From the NCBI GenBank assembly GCA_051047955.1, contig JBPGPT010000028.1:1-64000 (forward strand): a DNA stretch of 64,000 nucleotides, given 5' to 3'. The notes under the pieces were generated by a model. That model ran no database searches. It saw nothing but the letters and a program-made list of their open reading frames with translations, and was not told the DNA's origin. The position numbers and the translations under genes are program-made. The DNA comes from Cystobasidiomycetes sp. EMM_F5. Its lineage: Eukaryota. Below are positions 3,051-35,503 of this stretch, one piece after another (positions within the stretch are counted from its first letter, which is position 1; each line of letters opens with the position of its first letter).

Positions 3051-4328
3051 ATGAAGAAATGGCACAAATGGCTCGGACTCCTCCTGCTGCTCTCCCCTCC
3101 CTCTCACATTAGTGCCTTGCCATCTTGTACAGTGACGTCCTTTTCAGCCATTCCTGCCGCTGTTGCGAATTGCACGTCCATCACCCTGCAAGATATCGCA
3201 GTACCAGGTGGATCTTCGCTGAACTTGACTGGCCTCAAGACTGGATCCATTGTCAACTTCGCTGGGACGACCTCGTTCGGCTTCGCAAACGCAAGCTATG
3301 ACATGATTACCGTCAGCAATGCCATGAACGTAACGATCCAGGCAACATCAGGAGGTCTCATCAATGGCAATGGTCAGGCTTGGGTGAGTCTCGCTTCGGT
3401 GTCGTTGACGTCCAAAGCTCGTAGTCCTGATCTTCAGACAGTGGGATGGCCAAGGCAGCAACGGCGGTCGAGTCAAGCCAAACCATTTCTTTGCTTTGAA
3501 TAATTTGCAGAATTCCACTATCCGCAACCTCTTCATAACCTCCTGGCCGGTACACTGCTTCTCCATCTCCGGAGGAAATCATCTTCTTTTCGAAAATATT
3601 ACGCTTGATAATCGAGCAGGTGACGCGCCTAATGACATGTCAGGCGGACTTTCGGCAGCTCACAATTCAGATGGCTTCGATCTGTCAAGCACAAACAACA
3701 CGATACTGCGCAATTTCAGCGTCTATAACCAGGACGACTGCGTCGCCATCACGAGCGGTGACAACGTTCTCGTCGACAATGCCTACTGCAGCGGAGGTCA
3801 CGGACTCAGCATCGGATCGGTGGGGCTCAAGTCCAACAATATCGTTACAAACATTGTCTTTCAGAATTCAGTAATTGTCGATAGTGAGAACGGTCCGCGC
3901 ATCAAATCAAATTCCAACGCGACCGGATCGGTCTCAAAGTGAGCAAAGTCTGCTGAACTGTCACTTTTCGCTAAACTTTGGATCTCCAGCATTACCTACC
4001 GTAGTATTCGAGTTACAAATATCTCGACCTACGGCATCGATATTCAGCAGGATTATTTGAATGGAGGTATGCTGGACGGTCGCGTTGTGTACTGCATTTA
4101 CTGAAAGGCTTCCACGACATAGGGCCGACAGGCAATCCGACCAACGGTGTGAATGTCTCAAATATCATCATGAGTAATATTACCGGAACAGCTGCAGCGA
4201 GCGCACTGGACTACTACATTCTGTGCGGCAATTCCTCCTGCTCCAACTTCAATTTCAGCAACGTCAACATCACGGGAGGTAAGATAACCTCCAAGTGTAA
4301 TTATGGTAGCTTCCAATGCTCGCCATAA
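3051..4328 (+). CDS. Secreted endo-polygalacturonase (GH28)
   Basis: Signal peptide MKKWHKWLGLLLLLS. GH28 motifs NSDG (NTD variant), NQDDC, GGHGLSIGS and RIK. GT-AG introns at ~3384-3441, ~3939-3990 and ~4067-4121. Stop TAA at 4326-4328. Confidence 0.93.
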
Positions 4329-20605: not shown

Positions 20606-23600
20606 ATGCTCTCGAGAGGTATTGCAAGGAGTGGGGCAGCAGTAAAGGCGGCAGCGCTGTCGAGGAGCTATGCGACTCCGGCGAGCAGGATTGGTGATAC
20701 AAAGGTGGCCATGAGGTGAGCAATGCGAGCAGTGCGAGTGGATAGCATTGCTCTTTCTTTCTCCGTTCTTCCTTCACCCTACTCTCTTCTTCTCTTCTTC
20801 TCTTCCTCTCCCCTCCCCCCCTCTCCCCCTTCTCTTCTTCGTATCTCTTTCTTTCCTCTCTCTCTCCTACCCTGTCTTTCACACGCTGACACCCTCCTCA
20901 CCCTGCAGCTTGCTCGAGCCAAATGCCTACATCCAGTACCAGCGCATCGAAGACAAGTAAGTGGCACGATACACATCTCTTCGATTACCTTCTCACCCAC
21001 TCACTCTCTCCACAGCCTCGCCGTCGTTCGACAACGCCTAAACAGACCGCTCACCCTGTCCGAGAAGGTGGTCTATGGCCAGTGAGTTGGAAATGCGAGT
21101 CGAATTGAATGCATACTCATCACTACCCGCAGTCTCGACAACCCCCACGATGCCGACATTCAACGCGGCAACTCATACCTCAAGCTGCGACCGGATGTAT
21201 GTACATCTCCGAGCGTATAATAGAGACTGCTCACTGATCATGTATACGTATCCACAGCGAGTCGCTTGCCAGGATGCCACCGCACAGATGGCGCTACTCC
21301 AATTCATGACTGCCGGTCTGCCTACCGCTGCTGTGCCAACGACTGTGCGTCACGTCTTCCCCTCACTTGATGAAGGACCGAGTGTCTAATGTATTTGATG
21401 CGGTTGTGCAGGTTCACTGCGATCATCTCATCGAGGCACAGACGGGTGGTAAGCAGGATCTCGCAAGAGCTATCAATATCAACAAGGAGGTGTACGATTT
21501 CCTCGCTACTTGCACTGTACGTCGATTCGTCCACTAGTCCATCCGCATCTACTGAGCCATAATCTACGTACTGAATCGCCGCAACTCCTTATTGAATCAC
21601 ACTCTCTCTGCTGCCAGGCCAAGTACGGTATCGGATTCTGGAAGCCAGGCTCGGGCATCATCCACCAGATCATTCTCGAAAACTACGCCTTCCCAGGTGG
21701 AATGATGATTGGAACGGATTCCCATACTCCCAATGCCGGTGGTCTCGGAATGGTAGCCGTCGGTGTCGGTGGTGCAGATGCAGTAGACGTAATGGCAAAC
21801 CTGCCATGGGAACTCAAGTGCCCAAAGGCGATTGGCGTTAAATTGACTGGAAAGATTGGAGGATGGACTACGCCAAAGGGTGGGTGGATGACACCTGCGC
21901 GACTCTACAACAAAGGCTGATCGTATGCGTCCTGGAAATGCAGACGTCATTCTCAAGGTCGCGGGTATCCTCACCGTCAAGGGAGGTACAGGTGCAATCG
22001 TAGAGTACACTGGCGAAGGTGTCGACTCGCTCTCGTGCACCGGTATGGCCACCATCTGCAACATGGGCGCCGAGATTGGTGCGACCACTTCTCTCTTCCC
22101 GTACAATGATCGAATGGGCGACTACCTGCGAGCCACCAAGCGTGGTGACATTGCGAGCTATGCGCAGAGCTTCAAGCACAACCTGACAGCCGACAAGGAC
22201 GCAGAGTACGATCAGATGATTGAGATCAATCTCTCTGAACTTGAACCCCACATCAACGGCCCCTACACGCCAGATCTCGCTACCCCAATCTCAAAGTTTG
22301 CAGACGAAGTAAAGAAAAACAACTGGCCTTCCGAACTCAAAGTCGCTCTGATCGGATCGTGCACAAACTCGTCGTATGAGGATATGGGACGTGCTGCTTC
22401 CATCGCTCAGGAAGCGCTCGACCACGGCTTGAAGACGGTCTCCAAATTCACAATCACTCCGGGTTCTGAGCAGGTTCGCGCTACTATTGCACGTGATGGA
22501 CAGATGGGTACCCTCGAGTCTGTTGGCGGAGTCGTGCTCGCCAATGCATGCGGACCGTGCATCGGACAATGGGACCGAACGGACGTCAAGAAGGGAGATA
22601 AGAACTCCATCATTACGTCCTACAACCGAAACTTTACCGGACGAAATGACGCCAATCCTGGAACCCACGCTTTTGTAGCTTCACCCGATCTCGTCACTGC
22701 CATGGCATTTGCTGGCGACTTGACATTCAACCCGCTCACTGATTCGCTAAAGGGATCAGACGGAAAGGAGTTCAAATTCTCTGACCCGAATGGCAAGGAC
22801 CTCCCACCACGCGGATACGACCCAGGTGAAAACACCTACCAGGAACCACCTGCCGATCGTGAATCAGTCAACGTCCAAGTCTCCCCGTCCTCCGATCGTC
22901 TCCAGCTCCTGAAGCCATTCAAGGCTTGGGACGGTAAAGATCCAACAGACGCACCCGTCCTCATCAAGGCTGTAGGAAAATGCACAACGGATCATATCTC
23001 GGCTGGTGGACCGTGGCTCAAGTACCGTGGTCACTTGGAAAACATTTCTCAGAATTGCTTGATTGGTAAGTCGGCATTTGCGGAAATGGCAAAAGCGAGA
23101 TGTTGACATGAGAATGACGCAGGCGCGATCAACGAGGAAAGCCAGATTGCAAACAAGGTGCAGAACCTCAAGACTGGAGAATGGGGACCAGTCCCGACGA
23201 TTGCCGCCCAATACCGCGAGGCGGGTATCCCATGGGTCGTCATTGGGTAGGCGGGACGCATTCGAGAGAGGGGACGTCACTGACAATCTATCCAGTGACT
23301 GGAACTACGGCGAAGGCTCTTCCCGAGAGCATGCTGCTCTGGAACCCCGTTTCCTTGGTGGTACCGTAAGTCGGACCTGAATGGTGGCGAAAAATACGAA
23401 TTTGACTGTCAAATGCTGATGCACCTATCACGAAAAGGCTGTCATTACCCGATCATTCGCTCGTATCCACGAAACCAACTTGAAGAAGCAAGGCATGCTG
23501 CCGCTCAACTTCAAGAATCCGGAAGACTATGAGAAGGTCAAGGGCACCGATTTCGTCGACCTAGTCGGCATCACGAAGCTAGCGCCCGGCAGTGAAGTCA

Positions 23601-24384: not shown

Positions 24385-27300
24385 ATGGCATACTACGACG
24401 ATAACGGGCTGGGTGGACAGTACGATACTGGCCTCGATGGCTACGGATCTTCCGGGACTGGACTTGGTGGCTACGGGTCATCTGGTCTCGATGACGACCT
24501 CGGCCTCAGTTCTGGTTTAGGGAGCTTGAACCTCGATAGTGGTGTAGACTATGGCGGATCAGGAGGGCTCGATAGCCTCGACAGCGGCATTGGTCGCGAT
24601 TCCGGAGGTATGTCTGACAGGAATCTCAAAAGGTTCTAGCATGAATGGCTGATGATCCGCTGGCTTTACAGGACTGGGAGGATACGGGCAAAGCTCACTT
24701 CTCGACGGCAACTACTCTCGCGACCTGCTCGACAGTGGACTAGACAATACGCTTAGCTTCACAGATGACTTGGGCTACGGCAATGGCCTGGGCGCTTCTT
24801 CGCTGGGTGGATTGGGAGATTCTTTCGATAGCTACGGTGGAGGTTTGGGCTCGTCTGGACTTGGAGGACTTGGCACTTCGTTAGATGACTATGGAGCTTC
24901 GCTTGGTGGATTGGGCGGCGTGGGCCTTGGTACTGGATCTCTGGGCGGATTCGACGATCCAAATTACAATATGAACAGCATAGACTCCCTTGGACTCTCC
25001 TCGCGTGGCCTCGATGGCTATGGTGACGGCCTCGGAGGCTTGGGAAGCGGTCTATCTGGAAGTCTTGACGGAATCACATCTGGATTAGGAGGTCTCGGCG
25101 ATTCCTACGGCCTGGACAATCTATCAGGTTACGGGAATGATCTCGGCGCGCTTGGTGGTTGGCAAAGCAGCTGGGATACCGGCCTCGGAGGTCTTGGAGG
25201 CGATCTCCTGCAAGACGCAGCTATCGGATTGGGAGGTGCAGCTCTGGGTGCAGCAGGCGCATCCGCATATCTCGGAAGTCGGGGTATCGGCAGCAATCTC
25301 GGTTACGGGACATCAGGCCTTGGTGGGTACGGATCGTCGTACGATGGCTATTACGGTAATTCGATGCTTGACTCCAATCTTGGAGCACTTGGTCAATCTG
25401 CTTTTGCTGGAGCGTATGATGGCTTTTACGGAACCAACAACGCCGCTGTATGTCATGTCACAACCATTGCATGAATATATCTACTAATTTCTCGAATAAG
25501 CTACAATATGGCGACCTGGCGAGTTTCGAGTCGAGCTTGTATGCCAACCAAGCGTACAATGACATCGAAAGAGATAGCATTTTCCGCGATCGTCTGGCTT
25601 TTGACGCACTTGATGATGCTGCCCGGATGTCCGCTTACGGTTCCTATTCGCCATCAATGAGATCCCGCTTAGGTCTCGATAACGGCTATTGGGGCAGCGT
25701 ATACGGCGGTGGTTATTCTTCCTTCTATGATCCTGCATACTCCGGCTGGAATTCATCCTCTTTCGGCAATCTAGGAATGGGCAGTTACGGCGGCATAGGG
25801 TATAGTAACGGCTATGGCTCACCATCATTCTACGACAACTACCTCGGCAATCTGAGCTATTCTCTCCCTTCGTCGCTCAGGAGCTACTATGGCGATTACT
25901 TGGGCTCGAACAGGACAGGTAGTCTGCCATACTGGTCGGACGATTCTCGTTTCCGAGAGCTGGCGGATCTAAGCTACTATCAGCAGAGACTGCAGACTGA
26001 TAGAGCTCTCGATAGCGCGGAGCGTAATGCAAGATGGCAACAACGTCTCGGGTGGGAACAGCTGGATGCTGAGCAGCGACGCTTGCGATGGACACAGATG
26101 GACGAGCTTCAGCGAGAGGTGAGAGCATGGATGTCTGCTCTGTCTGGACTTGAATGCACATTGACAAGATGTCGTGCAGAGACTTGGCCTTGGCTTGATT
26201 GGAAGTTGGCACGGGTCTAGATATGCCGGTAGCGGCCAGGCTTTGAGCTTGCCTTACGAGCTGCCTTCGTCGTTGTCGACGCTCTATTCACCATACATCC
26301 GTGGTAGTGCATCGACAGGACTGTTCGACCCAAACTATGCGAGATATACTGATCTTGCATCGTGGAGTAATGCATTGCGGTATGACCGGAGCTTGCAGGA
26401 TAGTGAGCGACTACGTAGATGGCAACAGCGTCTGCAATGGGTGAGTGGCCACCACGACTGGATCAGAAACGCCTGCGACATCAGATTTACTGCCTGCCCA
26501 CACAGGAACAACTGAACAATGCAGATAGACAATCGCGATGGGCCCAGATGGGCGTTCGCGACCGAGATCTGCTCGGTCTAAACTCGGGTTACTGGGGATC
26601 TCAATTCTCGTCCCTATTTGATCCTTCCATGCTTCGACCTATGCAGCTTCCAATTTCCAGTAGATTGGCCGCTGTCTTTCAGCCGTATCAGAGCAAGCGG
26701 ACTCTACTGTCTTCACTGCGGTCTGGAGAGGATACTGCATTGGCATTTGCAGACTTGGTGGCCTTTGAGAATGCTCTCATTGCTGATCGGTAGGTCTCCT
26801 ACATCTGGAGTTGAACATTCCACCCGTAGCCTGATATCCGCTACGCAGCCGCCTTCGCACGGAAGACAAATTGAGGCGATGGAAAGCCAGAGTCAAATTT
26901 ATGGAGCTCAACGAGATGGAGCGACGTCGACGATTCTTCAACATGCAGGAAGCTGAGCGGAGGATGCTGGGTAGGTGATGCGGCGTGCGTCTTGGCTACA
27001 TCTTGTGTTGAATACGATGGATCTGCCATCAATAGGTCTTGGTGTATCATCGTTCTTCGGAAGGCGCTACTCGGCACCATTGCTGTTCAATGGTCTACAA
27101 GGTCTTCCACCTCCCATTAAAGCGTACCCAGCGCTTCGTCATCAGTTACCGCCGACTTTGCAGAGTCGCTACGGCAGCTATATTGCTGGTCCGCGCCTCT
27201 CGACAGGTCCCGCATCGCGGTCTCTAGTAGGGCAAGACCCGGCACGCGATCTTGCAAATAGGATCAGGCTCAGCATTGCACAAAAGCAAGAACAGTTATC

Positions 27301-27491
27301 GGGTCTGCCGCAGAATCGTGAGGATATTGTGTACAGTGCCAGCGTCTTTCAGCTGATGTGGTATACTAGAACGAATGGCAGCAACAGACGAGAAGCGGAG
27401 AATCCTCGCACAGATGGATGCTGACCGAAACAACAACCTGAGTAGGCAGATGGGCGAAGATGAGAGGCTGCGCCGACTCGGCGGATACTAG
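24385..27491 (+). CDS. Uncharacterised ~895-aa protein: Gly/Leu/Ser/Asp/Tyr low-complexity N-half plus four Trp/Arg-rich repeats
   Basis: Eight predicted exons (24385-24607, 24672-25447, 25501-26118, 26180-26440, 26506-26789, 26849-26970, 27036-27317, 27370-27491) total 2688 nt and form one open frame. Internal repeats continue across the splice junctions. Confidence 0.85.
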
Positions 27492-27757
27492 GCCGTGTCA
27501 GGGTAGAGTACAGTGGAAAGGCCAGAAGTGCGGTACAAGATTGACGAACGAAATGATGTCAGAGTGAGATTGTGAGAAGGAAAAAGGTGTCAGAGTAAAA
27601 GATCCAAAAGAGCTGCGACATGTCAAAGTCTTTTAAGGTACCCCCGCCGGAGAAATACCCAGGCCTGCAGTTTGAGCCTTGCGAGCTGACCGCCATGCTG
27701 CTCGTAACCTGACACACATGCGGGAAGCTGGCTTGCGAGCTAGGACAGCGTAGCGAT

Positions 27758-30700
27758 ATGGGGGACGCTGATGCTGGAGACGCTTCGACGGCATCCGTGT
27801 CGCGCTTGAGCAGCAGCGCCAGTCACAGCCAGCTCGAAAACGGCAAAGAAGTCTCGCAGGACAGGCCATATCCACAGCACTCATCAGCAGACAGCACCTC
27901 TGCAGCGCCGCGAAAGGAATCGTCCAAGTCGGATGCTGCAATCAATGCCAGTACAGACTTGGGTCGCGGCGACGTCGTAGACTACCTCAACAGCGGCAGC
28001 GCTGGGCAGGCGGGAAGCTTGTCGTGCTCCTCGCCGAGTAGCCCAGAGAACGATGCAGTGCCAGAGTCTGGCGTCACCGTCAGGCAGGTTGTGGCCTTCG
28101 ACACGGCCAATATACAAGTTCCCTTGTTGCAACACGCACGGAGACAGGCGCTCGAGAGGAGTTATTCGGTGGGTGGTCTTGTCATTAGTTACTGAGAGCG
28201 CAGTACTGCAATACTGAGTCCGGAAAGATGGTCTGCAGGCTGTTCTCCACGATGCGGCGTCAAGACCCGGTCGTGTAAAGTCGCCCGTTGAGGGCTCTAC
28301 TCCCGTGGCTACGTCCCCCTCTCTGTCCTCTCACACTCGACACTACCTCGGCCCCGAGTCGATCCAAGAGATTCCAGATCAGAACGGCAACCAGACATAC
28401 CTGTTCCCCACCTTGACCGACTGCGAGCGACAGCGTCTCAACAGACTGTGGTACATTACAAAAGGCATCGAAGACGATACCGTACTCAGGGAGCAGCTCA
28501 CCCAGCTCGCTTCCATCGCGCGCGAGACGACAGGTTACGGCATAGCAATCGTAGGCCTCCTCGACAATGACGCCTTTGTACGTATTGCAGCGAAAGGAGT
28601 ACCTCTGGCCGTCATCTCTCGAAGAGAAGCAACATGCTCACATACGGTACTGGAGCCACCGGGCGTGAGTCTGCGTTGAGGCACGGTGCAGAAGAAGTCT
28701 GACACGTTTCGTCACGCTCTCATTTGCGTCACCAGACGGTCTTTAGCTTGCCAGACATGTTTGCAGATGATCGATTCAAACATAGTGCGCCGGTTAAAAT
28801 GGGCGGCCTGCGAAGCTACGCAGGAACATCTATGCTTTACGAACTTCCGGATACCGGGTTAGTGGACAAGGCAGCTCTTCATTACGTGGACTCTGTGTTG
28901 ATAACATATATCAACGGTCTTACAGCCAAAAATTCCCGATGGGGTCGCTCTGCGTCGCAGATTACGCCGAGCAGACTGCTCTGACAGAATCTCAACAAGC
29001 CGTTCTTGTCAAGCTGGCAGCAGCAGCCATGAATACCATGTGAGATTGACGTATCTGTAGGCCAACAGAAGTGCTAGATGTCTCACAATCGCTCATTGGA
29101 CACAGACTGAACCGGTCTTACACTCAACGTCAAAGCAAGCAGGGAAAAATGCAACAGTATCTAGCTCAGCTGAGCGAGTACCAGCTCGACAGCTCGTCCA
29201 TATTGAAGAAAGTCAGCAAAGTCTTGGAGTCTGTTTTCCCTGGAGACAAGATTTCTTTTATTGAAAGCTCGAACGGCGTTCTGGGACTGGATGGAGGGAT
29301 TCCTGTCGCTTATACTTCCTTGCGCAGTAACCTTTGGGAGAATACCGAATTTTTCGAGCGATTCATTACGGAGAAGAATCATATCTCTTCGCGAGGCAAA
29401 CAGAACCAGTCTGTTCGCGCCATTGCAGTCGATTTGCCTAGAAGCGACATACACTATTTTGTGGTAGAGACTGCCGATTTACGCCAAGTCTACGACGAAA
29501 CGGACGTCATGTTTGTCCGGTCGTGTGCCATGATCGCTTGCAATGGACTCCAAGCGGGCCTGCTGCGAAAGGCACTAGATGCAAAGGTTTCATTTCTGCG
29601 AAGCGTACAGCACTCGTTCCGGACTAGTCTCAATGGCATATTATCTGCATCCGAGATGCTACTTGATGAAGACAAGATGTCCGACGGGAAGATGTCAGAA
29701 AGGAGCTCGAGGCAATGTTCCGCTCCTAGCTTTTCGTTTTCAAAGGAGTATCAGCCAGACGACGCAGCTCGTCAAGGCTCGGCTCTGACGAGGCTTTCTA
29801 CAGCCTCAACGGTGGACGTAGCTCCACTTGGTCGCGAAGACAAGCAGATCTTACCTTCCTCATCCTTTCATCGATCGAGCCCTCCCATCATGCGTGGCGA
29901 GATCGTCTCTCCACCGTCCGGCAGATCTGCTAAAGACGACAGAAGTTCGCTCATCAATATTATCGATACCTCAGGCCGCGCTCTTCTCACTGTCATCAAC
30001 AACCTCATTCATTTTGATGCCTCGTCGCAAGTTGTCTCTGCCGAGACGGATATGTGTAACTTGTACGATGTCGAGGAGGAGGTACTGAACAGTGTATTGT
30101 CGACATGCTCGTTCCAAAAACAGACCCAAGTCCTCCTGCAGGTCGTGGCGCACGACCTACCGGAGCATATAGACGTGGTCATGACGGATGAAAAACTTTT
30201 ACGACAGGCATTGACAGCACTTGTGCAAAATGCAATGGACAACACAGAAACGGGATCGGTCCAGCTCAGCTCATACATCAATGATGACACTGGCTCGCTG
30301 GTATTTGATATCAAGGATACTGGATGCGGTATCCCGCCCAAGGACATCGATCGCATCTTCCAGCCCTTCGAAAAGGTACATGCATACAGTCCCAATGCTG
30401 GACTGGGCCTCACTTTTGCAGCACGCTATGCGGCGATACTCAGCGGCTCTGTCTCCATTGTAACCACGGCCGTCGGGCAAGGCACAGTCATGCGACTGAA
30501 TCTGCCGCACCCCGTCTTCGCTTGTACTCAACAAAGAAGGGAAAATTCTCGCCGTTTTCTGAGGTGGAAGTATTACATCGCAGAATCTAGTGAGTTGGAG
30601 GAGGGTCGACAGCTAAGCGAGAAATCCATGGTCGGTATTGCAAAGTATCTGGAGCTTGCTGGACTCAAGCGAACAGACAATCTCGAGGAAGCCAGAATCA

Positions 30701-31431
30701 TCCTCGTAGACACCGAAGAATCGAGAAGTCACTGTGCCCAGCGCCTCGAACGTACCCCAAGGCATGTCTTCGTCACCATCCTTCCCCTTGCTGAGAACTA
30801 CAGACGATACCTCGAATACAATCCAGACGATCGGTTGTTCTACCTAGGCTTACCGCTATGTCGATCTCGTGTCGCGGCCTGCTTGGAACAGGCTAGAGCC
30901 GTCTTTCAACAATACGGCACACAGGATGCAGTGACCTTACATAGTATGACAGCGGCCGCCGAATGGACCAATGCAGTAGCGGCTGCTGCCGATACGACAT
31001 CTTCCAGGATGTCGGACACTTCGGATGCTCCACCTCTGCAAACGTTGCAATGTCTTCTGGTCGATGACAACGATACCAATTTGAGTATACTTCAAAAGTA
31101 TTGCGTCAAGCGTAGCTTCGGCCACGAAATAGCACGAGACGGCAATGAAGCTTTCGAACAGTATCGGAGGTCACATCAACAGGGACAGTCGATAACGTGC
31201 TGTTTGATGGATCTGCAGATGCCGCACTGTGATGGAATCCAATCCACTTTATATATACGCAACTATGAGAAGGAGCACGGCCTGCGACCTTCCAAGATAT
31301 TCATGGTATCAGGTCAGAGTGGAGACGAAGAGCGGAGTCTGGCACTGGCTGCCGGCTGCGACGGGTACTATGTGAAGCCATTACGCATCAAGGCTCTCGA
31401 CGAGCTGCTCGCAGTACATTTTCACATATAG
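27758..31431 (+). CDS. Hybrid histidine kinase, copy 1 (GAF-HisKA-HATPase-receiver)
   Basis: GAF (SRREATCSHT...DDRF...LRSYAG), H-box SVQHSFRTSLNGI, N-box LVQNA, G1 DTGCGI, F-box IFQPF and G2 AGLGL. Receiver LLVDDN...MDLQMP...KP. Four introns. Confidence 0.93.
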
Positions 31432-31840: not shown

Positions 31841-34800
31841 ATGGAGGCTCCTGATGCTAATGCTGGCAACGGGAAGAGCAGCACCTTTCAAAGCAAGCAG
31901 CCCGACGACAGCGACAAGGGTTCGCATGATACGCCAATTCCACAGCAGTCGTTAGCAGAAGGTACTCATATTTCCCTGCGTGAGGTATCATCAAAGTCCG
32001 CTGCTCCGATGGCCAAGAATGCATACACCAACTTGGGTCGCGGCGATGTTGCAGACTACTTCAACTTTCATAGCGGCAGCAAGGTGTACGGCGGCCATTC
32101 TCGCGGGTCATCCATTAGCTCTCAGGGGGACGTTCCAATGCCTGGTCCATCTGCCAGAGAAGTATTGGCATTCGACAAGGTCAATGTAGGTGTAGCCCTG
32201 TCGCAGCCTAGTCGTAGGCATGTAATGGAGAGAAGCTACTCGGTTGGTCATTTCCACTGAGCTCGAACATGCACTATCCAAACTCACAATGTTGATGGCC
32301 TCAGGCCAAATTGACTAGCGCTTCTGTTGGACCGGGACGAACAGCTCCTCCCGCCGAAAGCTCAGCAGCCGTCACTACGTCCCCCTCGCTTTCTACGCAC
32401 ACTCAGTCTGTACTCGACTCTGCATCGGGGCGAGGGAACGAAATTAGAAAAGATGATCATACGTCCTACTTGTACCCTACACTGACTGATTGCGAGCGAG
32501 AGCGGCTCAACAAACTCTGGTATGTCACCCAAGGCATCGAAGACGACGAAAGTTTGCGAGATCAGCTAGGTCAACTGGCATCTATTGCTCGCGAGACGAC
32601 AGGGTATGGCATAGCCATCATAGGGCTGCTCGATAACGATGCCTATATCCGCATCGCTGCCGAAGGCGCTCCTCTTGCTGTACTGTCTCGCCGGGAAGCA
32701 ACTTGCGCACACACAATCTTGCAAACACCAGGCGTGAGTCTTGTTTTGATGTCCCGGCTCAAGACTTGACGGTGCTGAATGCTGGATGGTCGTTTGTTTG
32801 CGTTACATGCCATTCAGACTGTCTTCAGCGTACCAAGCATGCGTACCGACGAGCGCTTTAAAAACAGCCCACATGTGAAAGAAGCGGGCTTGCAGAGCTA
32901 CGCAGGTACCTCTCTCATTTACGAAGTTCCAAACAGCGAGTCAGTACAATTCATTCACATCTCACGATTCTCGGTTAACGCAACGCTCGCTTGTATGGGT
33001 TTGTAGTGAAAAGGTGCCGTTCGGATCCTTATGCGTAGCAGACTACTCGGAGCGAGATGCTCTGACCGAGTCTGAGCAAATGGTTTTGGTTCGGCTGGCC
33101 AGGGCCGTCATGAATACTATGTAAGTGGCTTTGGCTGTCAGTTCTTTGACATAGTATCTAATTTCAATCTAAACTAGCATGTACCGCGCCAATGCACAGC
33201 GGCAGCAAGTGCAGAGGAAGATGCAAGAGCATCTAACGCAGCTTAGCAATTATCAGAGCGACAACTCAGCGATACTGAAAGAAGTCAACAAAGCTCTAAA
33301 ATCAGTTTTCCCTGGAAACAAAGTCTCTTTTGTCGAAAGCCAAGATGGTCACATCGAGTTGAACAAGGTCGGCCCAGTCGCTATCAAGTCCTTCCGTAAC
33401 AATGTCTGGGAGAATACCGATTATTTTGAACGTTTCATTGCGGAGAAGAATCATACTTCTTCGAGAGGCTTGCAGAGCGAGACGATTCGCGCCATTGCCG
33501 TTGGATTACCAAGAAGCCACGCACACCATTTTCTGATCGAAACGGCAGATTTGCGGCAAGTTTACGATGAGACGGACACGATGTTCGTACGATCGTGTGC
33601 AATGATTGCCTGCAATGGACTCCAAGCTGGCTTACTGCGAAAGGCACTCGATGCTAAAGTTGCATTCCTGCGCAGTGTACAACATTCCTTCCGCACCAGT
33701 CTAAATGGCATACTGTCGGCTTCGGAGATGCTGCTCGACGAAGAGAAGGAGTTTGATGCAAAACTTTCCGAGAGGAGCTTTACGCCACGCTCATTGCCCA
33801 ACTCAACATTCTCAAAGCAGTATCAGCCAGAGGACGCGCGTAGCGTAATAATGCCGTTGACCAGGCGGTCCACGGCGTCAACCGCAGACATGGTCGCTGG
33901 TGGAAGCAATGAAAGGTACATCCTACGTTCCGCTTCCTCTCAGCAGTCGAGTCTTGCAGCCACCCCCGGCGAACGTGCGTCTCGAGCGACCAATAGATCA
34001 GCTAGAGACGAGAAGGGTTCCCTTCTCAATATCATTGATACTTCAGGACGCGCTCTGCTCACCATCATCAACAATCTCATCCACTTTGATGCCTCGTCGC
34101 AGCTTATCACGGCAGAGACGAACCTCTGTAATTTGTTCGATGTCGAAGAGGAGGTACTCAACAGTGTCCTATTGGCATGCTCATTCAGAAAACAAACTCA
34201 AGTAGCCTTGCAAGTCATGGCTTATCAGCTACCTGACCATGTAGACGTGGTCATGACGGATGACAAGCTTTTACGGCAGGCTTTGACAGCCCTTGTGCAA
34301 AATGCGATGGACAACACAGAAAAGGGATTGGTACAGCTCAGCTCGTACATCAACAGTGACACTGGATCGCTGGTATTTGATGTCAAAGATACTGGATGCG
34401 GTATCCCGCTCGAGGATATTGATCGCATCTTTCAACCTTTTGAAAAGGTGGATACATTCAGTCAAAATGCTGGATTAGGCCTCACTTTTGCAGCACGCTA
34501 TGCGACAACACTTGGGGGCACGGTCTCAGTAGTGAGCACTGCGATTGGCCAAGGTACAGTCATGCGCTTGGATCTGCCGAACCCCGTCTTCGCATGCACT
34601 CGACAACGAAGGGACATTTCTCGCCGCTTTTTGAGGTGGAAGTACTACGTCGCAGAATCTAGTGAGTCGGGCGAGGAGCGACAGCTGAGTGAGGAATCTA
34701 TGATCGGCATTTCAAGATATCTAGAGCTTGCTGGACTCAAGCGAACAGACAACATCGAGGAAGCCAGAATCATCCTCGTTGATAGTGAAGAATCTAGAAG

Positions 34801-35503
34801 CCGCTGTGCCCAACGCCTCGAACGTACCACAAGGTATGTATTTGTCACCATCCTTCCCCTTGCGGAGAACTATAGACGATACCTCGAATACAACCCGGAC
34901 GATCGGTTGTTCTACCTGGGCTTACCGCTCTGTCGATCTCGCGTTGCGGCCTGCTTGGAACAGGCTAAATGGGTATTGAAACACGATGACACGAAGAATG
35001 CAGCCTTTCGACGAGGTATAACTGCGACTGCCGAATGGACTAATGCAGTAGCGGCTGCTGCAGATGCCACATCTTCCAGGATGTCGGACACTTCGGATGC
35101 ACCACCTCTGCAGACGTTACATTGTCTACTGGTCGATGACAACGATACCAATCTAAGTATACTTCAGAAGTATTGCAAAAAGCGCAAATTCGCTCATGAA
35201 ATAGCCAGAGACGGCAACGAGGCTTTCGAACAGTATCGAAGGCTACATCAACAGGGACAGCCGATAACGTGCTGTTTAATGGACCTGCAGATGCCACACT
35301 GTGATGGAATCCAATCCACTTCATATATACGTAACTATGAGAAGGAGCATGGCCTCCGGCCATCCAAGATATTCATGGTATCAGGTCAGAGCGGGGACGA
35401 AGAGCGAAATCTGGCATTGGCTGCCGGCTGCGACGGGTACTATGTGAAGCCATTACGCATCAAGGCTCTCGACGAGCTGCTCGCTTTGCATTTTCATATA
35501 TAG
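31841..35503 (+). CDS. Hybrid histidine kinase, copy 2 (tandem paralog)
   Basis: Same domain order, motifs and four intron positions as copy 1. Confidence 0.93.

Follow-up and report, generated by a model that had tools for sequence, protein, structure and literature searches.

Tandem arrays of small helical units are known from several well-described proteins. The spectrin repeat, of ~106 amino acids (aa), is a three-helix bundle with a conserved Trp, and successive repeats are contiguous and joined by a continuous helix. Solenoid repeats such as TPR, HEAT/ARM, Sel1 and PPR are likewise tandem helical units, and FUS-like scaffolds combine a Tyr-rich low-complexity domain with Arg-rich regions and assemble through Tyr-Arg contacts. 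Here we analyze a gene in a stretch of 64,000 nucleotides (nt) from Cystobasidiomycetes sp. EMM_F5 (assembly GCA_051047955.1, contig JBPGPT010000028.1, positions 1 to 64,000 of the forward strand; hereafter the window). The encoded protein carries four copies of a helical core that, judging from its sequence and from searches of Pfam and PDB, is an undescribed domain family. An initial annotation of this DNA had pointed to four copies of an unrecognized ~110-aa Trp/Arg-rich repeat at 25501..27180.

The protein consists of an acidic low-complexity N-terminus, four units each made of a helical domain and a flexible linker, and a basic helical tail. It resembles each of the above systems in some respects and differs from each in others, as detailed below.

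The four units and their gene

All four cores lie on the forward strand. R1 occupies aa 334-399 (25501-25698), while the others are split by introns: R2 (aa 483-552) is encoded by 25948-26118 and 26180-26218, on either side of an intron at 26119-26179; R3 (aa 591-658) by 26333-26440 and 26506-26601, interrupted by an intron at 26441-26505; and R4 (aa 703-770) by 26734-26789, 26849-26970 and 27036-27061, with introns at 26790-26848 and 26971-27035. Against a profile built from alignment A1, which holds 21 rows of core sequences, the units match with i-Evalues from 1e-18 to 8e-27, the latter being that of R1. They also resemble one another directly. The six core pairs reach Smith-Waterman scores of 56-139, against shuffle means of 23-35 (z 8.1-19.9), with none of 500 shuffles at the observed score in any pair, and global identity between cores is 25-46%. 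The cores quoted in the initial annotation were all found in place once the introns had been removed, which bears out its count of four copies, its manual splicing, and its explanation that introns conceal the repeats in the track of open reading frames (ORFs).

Concerning the linkers, the first (aa 400-482, 25699-25947) is rich in Gly, Tyr and Ser and contains the motif LPSSL..Y..Y at aa 455 (25864-25899). The same motif is found at aa 567 in the second (aa 553-590, 26219-26332), which could be aligned with nine homologues. The third (aa 659-702, 26602-26733) has a variant recognized by eye, LPISS...F.PY, and the fourth (aa 771-827, 27062-27232) is rich in Pro and Arg, has a net charge of +7, and carries LPPTL..Y..Y at aa 799 (27146-27181). 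The general form after R1, R2 and R4, LP[SP][ST]L..Y..Y, aligns with homologues. Likeness among linkers is uneven: three of the six pairs are clearly similar (L1-L2, L1-L4 and L2-L4, z 4.4-5.5, with 0-1 of 500 shuffles at the observed score), and three are weakly similar or dissimilar (L2-L3, z 2.7, 12/500; L1-L3, z 1.7, 36/500; L3-L4, z -1.5, 496/500).

These data refine the repeat as first described. A linker of the LPSSL..YxxY type was said to follow each core; it does so after R1 and R2, in altered form after R4, and after R3 as a looser variant. The period of ~110 aa holds for units 2-4, whose starts are 108 and 112 aa apart, but not for the first spacing of 149 aa. The description as Trp/Arg-rich suits R2 and R3 (12 and 11 Arg, 4 and 5 Trp) and does not suit R1 (6 Arg, 1 Trp), while R4 is rich in Arg (12) but has a single Trp; most Trp positions of these two units are occupied by Phe or Tyr in R1 as well as in R4.

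At the DNA level, TRF returned no row in 25501-27180, and the three families of short direct repeats that were detected all lie within 24427-25341, that is, none of them in this region. Since no DNA-level repeat is present there, the repeat exists at the protein level only and is old. Introns interrupt the cores at different places (around core position 57 in R2, 36 in R3, and 19 and 60 in R4), and therefore were not copied along with the units. When the core profile was run over the whole 64-kb window, no matches were found outside the gene that contains the four units.

This gene extends over 24385-27491 on the forward strand and encodes 895 aa in eight exons (24385-24607, 24672-25447, 25501-26118, 26180-26440, 26506-26789, 26849-26970, 27036-27317 and 27370-27491) separated by seven introns, which are the four named above plus 24608-24671, 25448-25500 and 27318-27369. 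All seven are GT..AG introns of 52-65 nt, with GTATGT, GTGAGN or GTAGGT donors and branch sites of the CTAAT/CTGAT/TTGAC type 15-25 nt upstream of the acceptor. Unspliced, every single frame of 24385-27491 is interrupted; with the seven introns removed, one continuous frame extends from the ATG to the TAG, and its product contains no Cys. The surrounding region is fungal-type nuclear DNA with a G+C content of ~52%. In the initial annotation, the start of the repeats (25501) coincides to the base with the beginning of exon 3, and the repeats do lie in the span that it gave, but that span missed the rest of the gene, which adds 333 aa of low-complexity sequence at the N-terminus and a conserved tail at the C-terminus.

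Support for the splicing is comparative, and comes from ORF fragments of other sources in which one or another of the introns is missing and which span the corresponding window junctions without interruption. Junction 2, from the low-complexity region into R1, is crossed in this way in five of them (P0012, P0027, P0042, P0043 and P0044), and junction 3, in R2, in six (P0011, P0027, P0031, P0032, P0034 and P0035). For junction 4, in R3, nine are seen in the alignment (P0011, P0014, P0017, P0020, P0028, P0031, P0032, P0034 and P0035), to which P0027, by direct reading, and the metagenome orthologue L001 are to be added. Junction 5, in R4, is crossed in P0013, P0020, P0028 and L001, and junction 6, at the end of R4, in P0013. 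At junction 7, the tails of proteins with a single core (see below) match the spliced tail. The N-terminus obtained by splicing at junction 1 (M-A-Y-Y-D-D...) is, by eye, like the starts of single-core homologues. Taken together, these comparisons identify 24385-27491 as what appears to be a real nuclear fungal gene with seven short introns. They also illustrate how relatives without introns can bring to light repeats that introns split and hide from ORF tracks.

The tail itself (aa 828-895, 27233-27491 including the stop codon) is helical and split by the intron at 27318-27369. Taken as a whole, the sequence downstream of R4 (aa 771-895) resembles the tails of nine out of 11 single-core proteins examined (z 6.6-9.4, none of 300 shuffles at the observed score) and matches those of the other two weakly (P0021, z 2.9; P0040, z 2.1). 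We also considered aa 828-895 as a fifth repeat and rejected it, as it gives z of only -0.9 to 1.5 against R1-R4 and resembles the tails of single-core proteins instead.

Relatives, age and predicted structure of the core

When the 206 aa of exon 3 served as a HMMER query, 1.84 billion representative proteins yielded 26 matches at E<=1e-3, eight of them at <=1e-10 and one at <=1e-30, and a profile made from the four window units alone detected the core in all 26. The consensus derived from A1 (66-72 aa) is DL..Y...L..D.AL.E.ER..RW..RL.WE.LD...RR.RW..M....R.RLGL..G, in which invariance is complete for one Arg and two Leu, and nearly complete for D, L and two more R. Searching with the A1 profile gave 21 proteins among 8000 scored candidates. 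Six of the 21 are named in NCBI, all of them as 'hypothetical protein': four from Rhodotorula (R. glutinis, R. kratochvilovae, R. sphaerocarpa and R. pacifica), one from Rhodosporidiobolus nylandii, and one from Puccinia striiformis.

These six proteins (P0036-P0041) are 254-379 aa long, typically ~370, and contain one core each (i-Evalues 2e-20 to 2.5e-26). They share with the window protein not only the core domain, but also a Tyr/Pro motif of the '...RRYSPYFS' type after it, which by eye is the counterpart of the window linker motif, an acidic Tyr/Gly/Asp-rich N-terminus that starts with M-x-Y/L-Y-D (also by eye), and, in five of the six, an Arg-rich helical C-terminal tail (z 7.0-9.4, with P0040 being the weak match). 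They differ from it in having one core rather than four, a far shorter low-complexity N-terminus, and a longer, coiled-coil-like tail. Because the core occurs as a single copy in these ~370-aa basidiomycete proteins, it is a domain as well as a repeat, and is not confined to arrays.

The multi-unit form was seen in unnamed fragments and in L001 only. Exon 3, used as a query at longer lengths, gave no match at E<=0.001 among 2329 candidates, and we could not find any annotated full-length orthologue with four units: residues 226-585 of P0027, searched against proteins with lengths of 321-1024, gave five, none of which is named or full length. On these sequence comparisons, the window gene belongs to what we read as an undescribed family of Dikarya, whose members carry either one domain, as in a rust and in yeasts of the Pucciniomycotina, or several, as in the window gene and its unnamed orthologues.

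To establish the age of the array, we considered a tree of individual units. Among 65 extracted core matches, 11 covering fewer than 50 profile positions and two from P0029, the window's own ORF, were dropped, and the remaining 52 were analyzed over 71 columns (IQ-TREE, quick). The four window units fall in four separate clades, each together with units that hold the same position in other sources. Branch support, by the Shimodaira-Hasegawa-like approximate likelihood ratio test (SH-aLRT), is 98 for the R1 clade (8 rows), 93 for the R2 clade (8 rows), 89 for the R3 clade (12 rows; 81 when two further rows are included, making 14), and 94 for the R4 clade (4 rows). Single-core proteins are placed outside these clades, and their position is unresolved. 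The same position-specific grouping is obtained in direct alignments with L001 and with homologues. Since same-position units cluster across sources, the duplications are older than the divergence of these sources; the fourfold array is thus old, with each unit kept in its position.

We found no named family that includes the core. In Pfam-A (models to 2025), six exon translations gave nothing at E<=1 on the core-bearing exons, with one noise match on exon 7 (E 0.24); 13 homologues gave three matches at E 0.046-0.079, far below the cut-offs; and among 21 core sequences no family matched more than one member (best E 0.0089). A sequence-profile search of PDB had its best match, at E 0.042, to designed proteins. 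The literature, searched by locus tags of the NCBI relatives, by composition and by motifs in texts without their supplements, yielded nothing on the core family, only general work on low-complexity regions and condensates and an unrelated Mycobacterium paper.

AlphaFold2, run on A1 with R1 (70 aa) as the first row, predicts a compact helical bundle for the single core, with a mean predicted local distance difference test score (pLDDT) of 94.5 (92.5-94.5 over five models), a predicted template modelling score (pTM) of 0.81, and helices at residues 2-15, 21-36, 39-48, 51-56 and 62-68. For this model, Foldseek found no match in PDB at E<=0.001, its best E being 3.7. VIA-align, run over 48,161 representative chains, gave none with Z>=5. 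The best chain was the core-binding domain of lambda integrase, with Z 4.8 and a root-mean-square deviation of 4.2 Å over 66 residues, in a range that is common for helical models. The combination of AlphaFold and Foldseek put forward as a check in the initial annotation hence agrees with its statement that no named domain is recognizable here, as do the Pfam and PDB sequence searches.

To model more than one unit we used the homologue P0013 (237 aa), with a 16-row alignment, A2. The resulting two-unit AlphaFold2 model has a mean pLDDT of 69 and a pTM of 0.34, with values of 81-92 in the cores and 42-53 in the linkers. Because the cores are confident, the linkers are not, and pTM is low, an arrangement like beads on a string, with separate domains on flexible linkers, would fit better than a solenoid, although low confidence is no proof that packing is absent. 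The units are indeed unlike those of TPR, HEAT/ARM, Sel1 and PPR proteins in being separated by linkers of 38-83 aa, in occurring singly elsewhere, in having no Pfam match, and in that no continuous superhelix is predicted. Spectrin is similar in the period of units 2-4, in that the units are all-helical and in tandem, and in the conserved aromatics of the helices. However, a window unit is folded over 66-70 aa only, the rest being a low-confidence Ser/Tyr/Pro linker with little regular structure, where the linker of spectrin is helical. Moreover, Pfam gave no spectrin match in the exons or in the 21 cores, and no spectrin chain was among the 50 best structural matches listed. The proposal of a new helical repeat family thus needs qualification: the unit is predicted to be helical and matches no named family, but it fits a string of separate domains better than a solenoid-type repeat and also exists in single copy; it is new in the sense that the domain family is undescribed, but not in the sense of its sequences, those of relatives being already public as 'hypothetical protein'.

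With a confident predicted structure, conservation between distant fungi, and no name or solved relative found, the core is a clean example of the 'dark matter' of fungal proteins. Many lineage-restricted fungal families are equally uncharacterized, and an architecture of a low-complexity region and tandem small domains is ordinary. Nonetheless, the family is real and cleanly delimited, and merits a Pfam-style entry and an experimental structure.

Possible function and alternative explanations

The N-terminal low-complexity region (aa 1-333, 24385-25447 with the intron 24608-24671 inside) consists of 101 Gly (30%), 55 Leu (17%), 47 Ser (14%), 37 Asp (11%) and 23 Tyr (7%) among its main residues, has four Arg and neither Lys nor Glu, and carries a net charge of -33. 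The remainder of the protein contains 65 Arg, with net charges of -4 in R1, +1 in R2, +3 in R3, +5 in R4, and +3 in the tail. An alignment with five orthologue fragments reveals conserved islands within the low-complexity region, at aa 237-276 (25157-25276). The first has the motif GW.SS[WY]D.GL, and the second (aa 253-276) is a Gly/Ala-rich hydrophobic stretch (D-A-A-x-x-L-G-G-A-A-L...) with seven invariant columns (D, A, G, G, A, A, L) in six sequences. This stretch also holds the highest hydropathy over 19 aa in the protein, 1.38, and a value of ~1.6 is usually taken to indicate a membrane span. Given this value, and because the first 30 residues are hydrophilic, with no signal peptide, the 895-aa protein is read as intracellular and without a clear membrane span. 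The Gly/Ala-rich stretch could be a membrane-associating segment or a self-pairing one of the glycine-zipper type.

From the contrast between a strongly negative N-terminus and positive values in R2-R4, linker 4 and the tail, and from the 23 Tyr and four Arg of the former against the 65 Arg elsewhere, we tentatively suggest that the protein serves as an intracellular scaffold of a multivalent kind. Its four similar folded modules, strung on flexible linkers, would provide one binding surface each, rich in conserved Arg and aromatics; contacts of the Tyr-Arg type and through charge could form, within and between molecules, between the acidic N-terminus with its Tyr and the C-terminal half with its many Arg; and such contacts may lead to an assembly or a condensate. 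FUS-like scaffolds offer a comparison for this way of working, and for it only, as they too have a Tyr/Gly/Ser-rich N-terminus and an Arg-rich C-terminal half in one chain. The window protein differs in that none of its exons has a Pfam match to an RRM, a zinc finger or any other named domain that binds RNA, in that its low-complexity region is also rich in Leu and Asp, poor in Gln and Asn, and strongly acidic, and in that its Arg are in folded helices rather than in disordered RGG tracts. That proteins with one to four modules occur in nature, with each module kept in position, suggests that valency matters. A bolder version, which is speculative and which we hold rather doubtful, is that the module is a domain family of Dikarya that is new at the level of the fold, recognizes itself or binds a partner, and together with the acidic Tyr/Gly head builds a fungus-specific intracellular assembly (a condensate or gel) whose valency is tuned by the number of domains, one in red yeasts and rusts and four here.

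Several alternatives have to be weighed. The 895-aa frame might be an artefact, either a pseudogene or a chance open frame created by introns chosen to fit, as eye and reading frame guided the placing of the introns. We consider this very improbable in view of the canonical signals in all seven introns, the six junctions that are matched by uninterrupted homologous ORFs of other sources, the conservation of the core between distant fungi, and the clustering of same-position units from different sources. The core might also belong to an already described family beyond the reach of our searches, such as an InterPro or PANTHER entry, a recent Pfam domain of unknown function, or a cluster of the AlphaFold database: the searches were made against Pfam and PDB, and proteins of the family are already in NCBI and UniRef. 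Pfam-A, the PDB profile search, Foldseek and VIA-align all lack a significant match, which makes such a membership improbable.

As for function, the modules might bind nucleic acid, most likely RNA, so that the protein, with its low-complexity domain, would be a multivalent RNA binder comparable to many granule proteins. Three Arg (R24, R31 and R42 in the numbering of R1) are invariant or nearly so in the 21-row alignment, R2-R4 have 11-12 Arg each, and tandem small domains on flexible linkers are combined with a Tyr/Gly-rich low-complexity region. However, the net charges of the cores are low, Pfam reports no RNA-binding family, and no such fold stands out in Foldseek or VIA-align; moreover, the conserved Arg are in ER/RW/RL patterns next to conserved acidic residues, and could equally form internal salt bridges, all of which makes RNA binding unlikely. 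Association with a membrane through the Gly/Ala-rich stretch at aa 253-276, with the four modules as a cytosolic docking platform, would account for the seven invariant columns in an otherwise variable low-complexity region and for the fact that this is the most hydrophobic 19-aa segment of the protein, but its mean hydropathy remains under the usual threshold, the six NCBI-named single-core proteins have (by eye) no such stretch, and a signal peptide is absent; this, too, we regard as quite unlikely.

We therefore prefer, as the best explanation as a whole, a real gene for a four-domain protein of an undescribed family, with an old array and a putative role as a scaffold, and give it a probability of about 0.5. 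A number of observations weigh against it. The splicing model derives entirely from sequence comparison, and at junction 1, which falls within low-complexity sequence, its basis is the splice signals and the stop codon reached on read-through. The tree is based on 71 columns only, and of its 49 inner branches 24 lack resolution. Helices 1 and 2 are drawn as a hairpin in the single-unit model of R1 and as one helix of 38-47 residues in that of P0013, so that the two predictions disagree on the topology of the module. The scaffold role is deduced from composition and architecture, and the notion of an Arg-rich basic module fails for one unit, the acidic R1. Finally, the N-terminus, rich in Leu and Asp and poor in Gln and Asn, is unlike classic prion-like domains, and given its conserved islands may do more than act as a disordered sticker.

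A metagenome orthologue and the genomic neighbourhood

L001 is a single locus obtained with a single-protein query, and is 57-67% identical to the window protein over the longest segments. It has the same order, R1-R2-R3-R4-tail, with R1 cut by the start of the contig. Introns are present at window sites 3 and 6, with one near site 7, while introns 4 and 5 (26441-26505 and 26790-26848) are absent; conversely, L001 has introns of its own at 1038-1087 and 1733-1792, of which one follows the 'GGY' that closes R3 and the other interrupts the tail. These differences point to intron turnover between the two genes.

Two further features of L001 are worth mentioning. At 1990-2020 (27462-27491 in the window), a TAG takes the place of the GAT that lies nine codons ahead of the window stop, and the bases that follow still encode E-R-L-R-R-L. 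This shortens the tail, and reflects either a nonsense mutation of recent origin or an error in sequencing. In addition, positions 3064-3186 are the reverse complement of positions 1-123 and encode the same peptide on the minus strand, a copy that is most likely an assembly artefact.

In the window, an ORF of the aconitase family (21892-23106, forward strand; Pfam E 1.3e-86) is found just upstream of the gene. Downstream, two ORFs on the forward strand (29050-31431 and 33173-35503) each contain HisKA, HATPase_c and Response_reg domains and, because of these, are read as tandem hybrid histidine kinases; the ORFs at 27713-28679 may represent the 5' part of the first.

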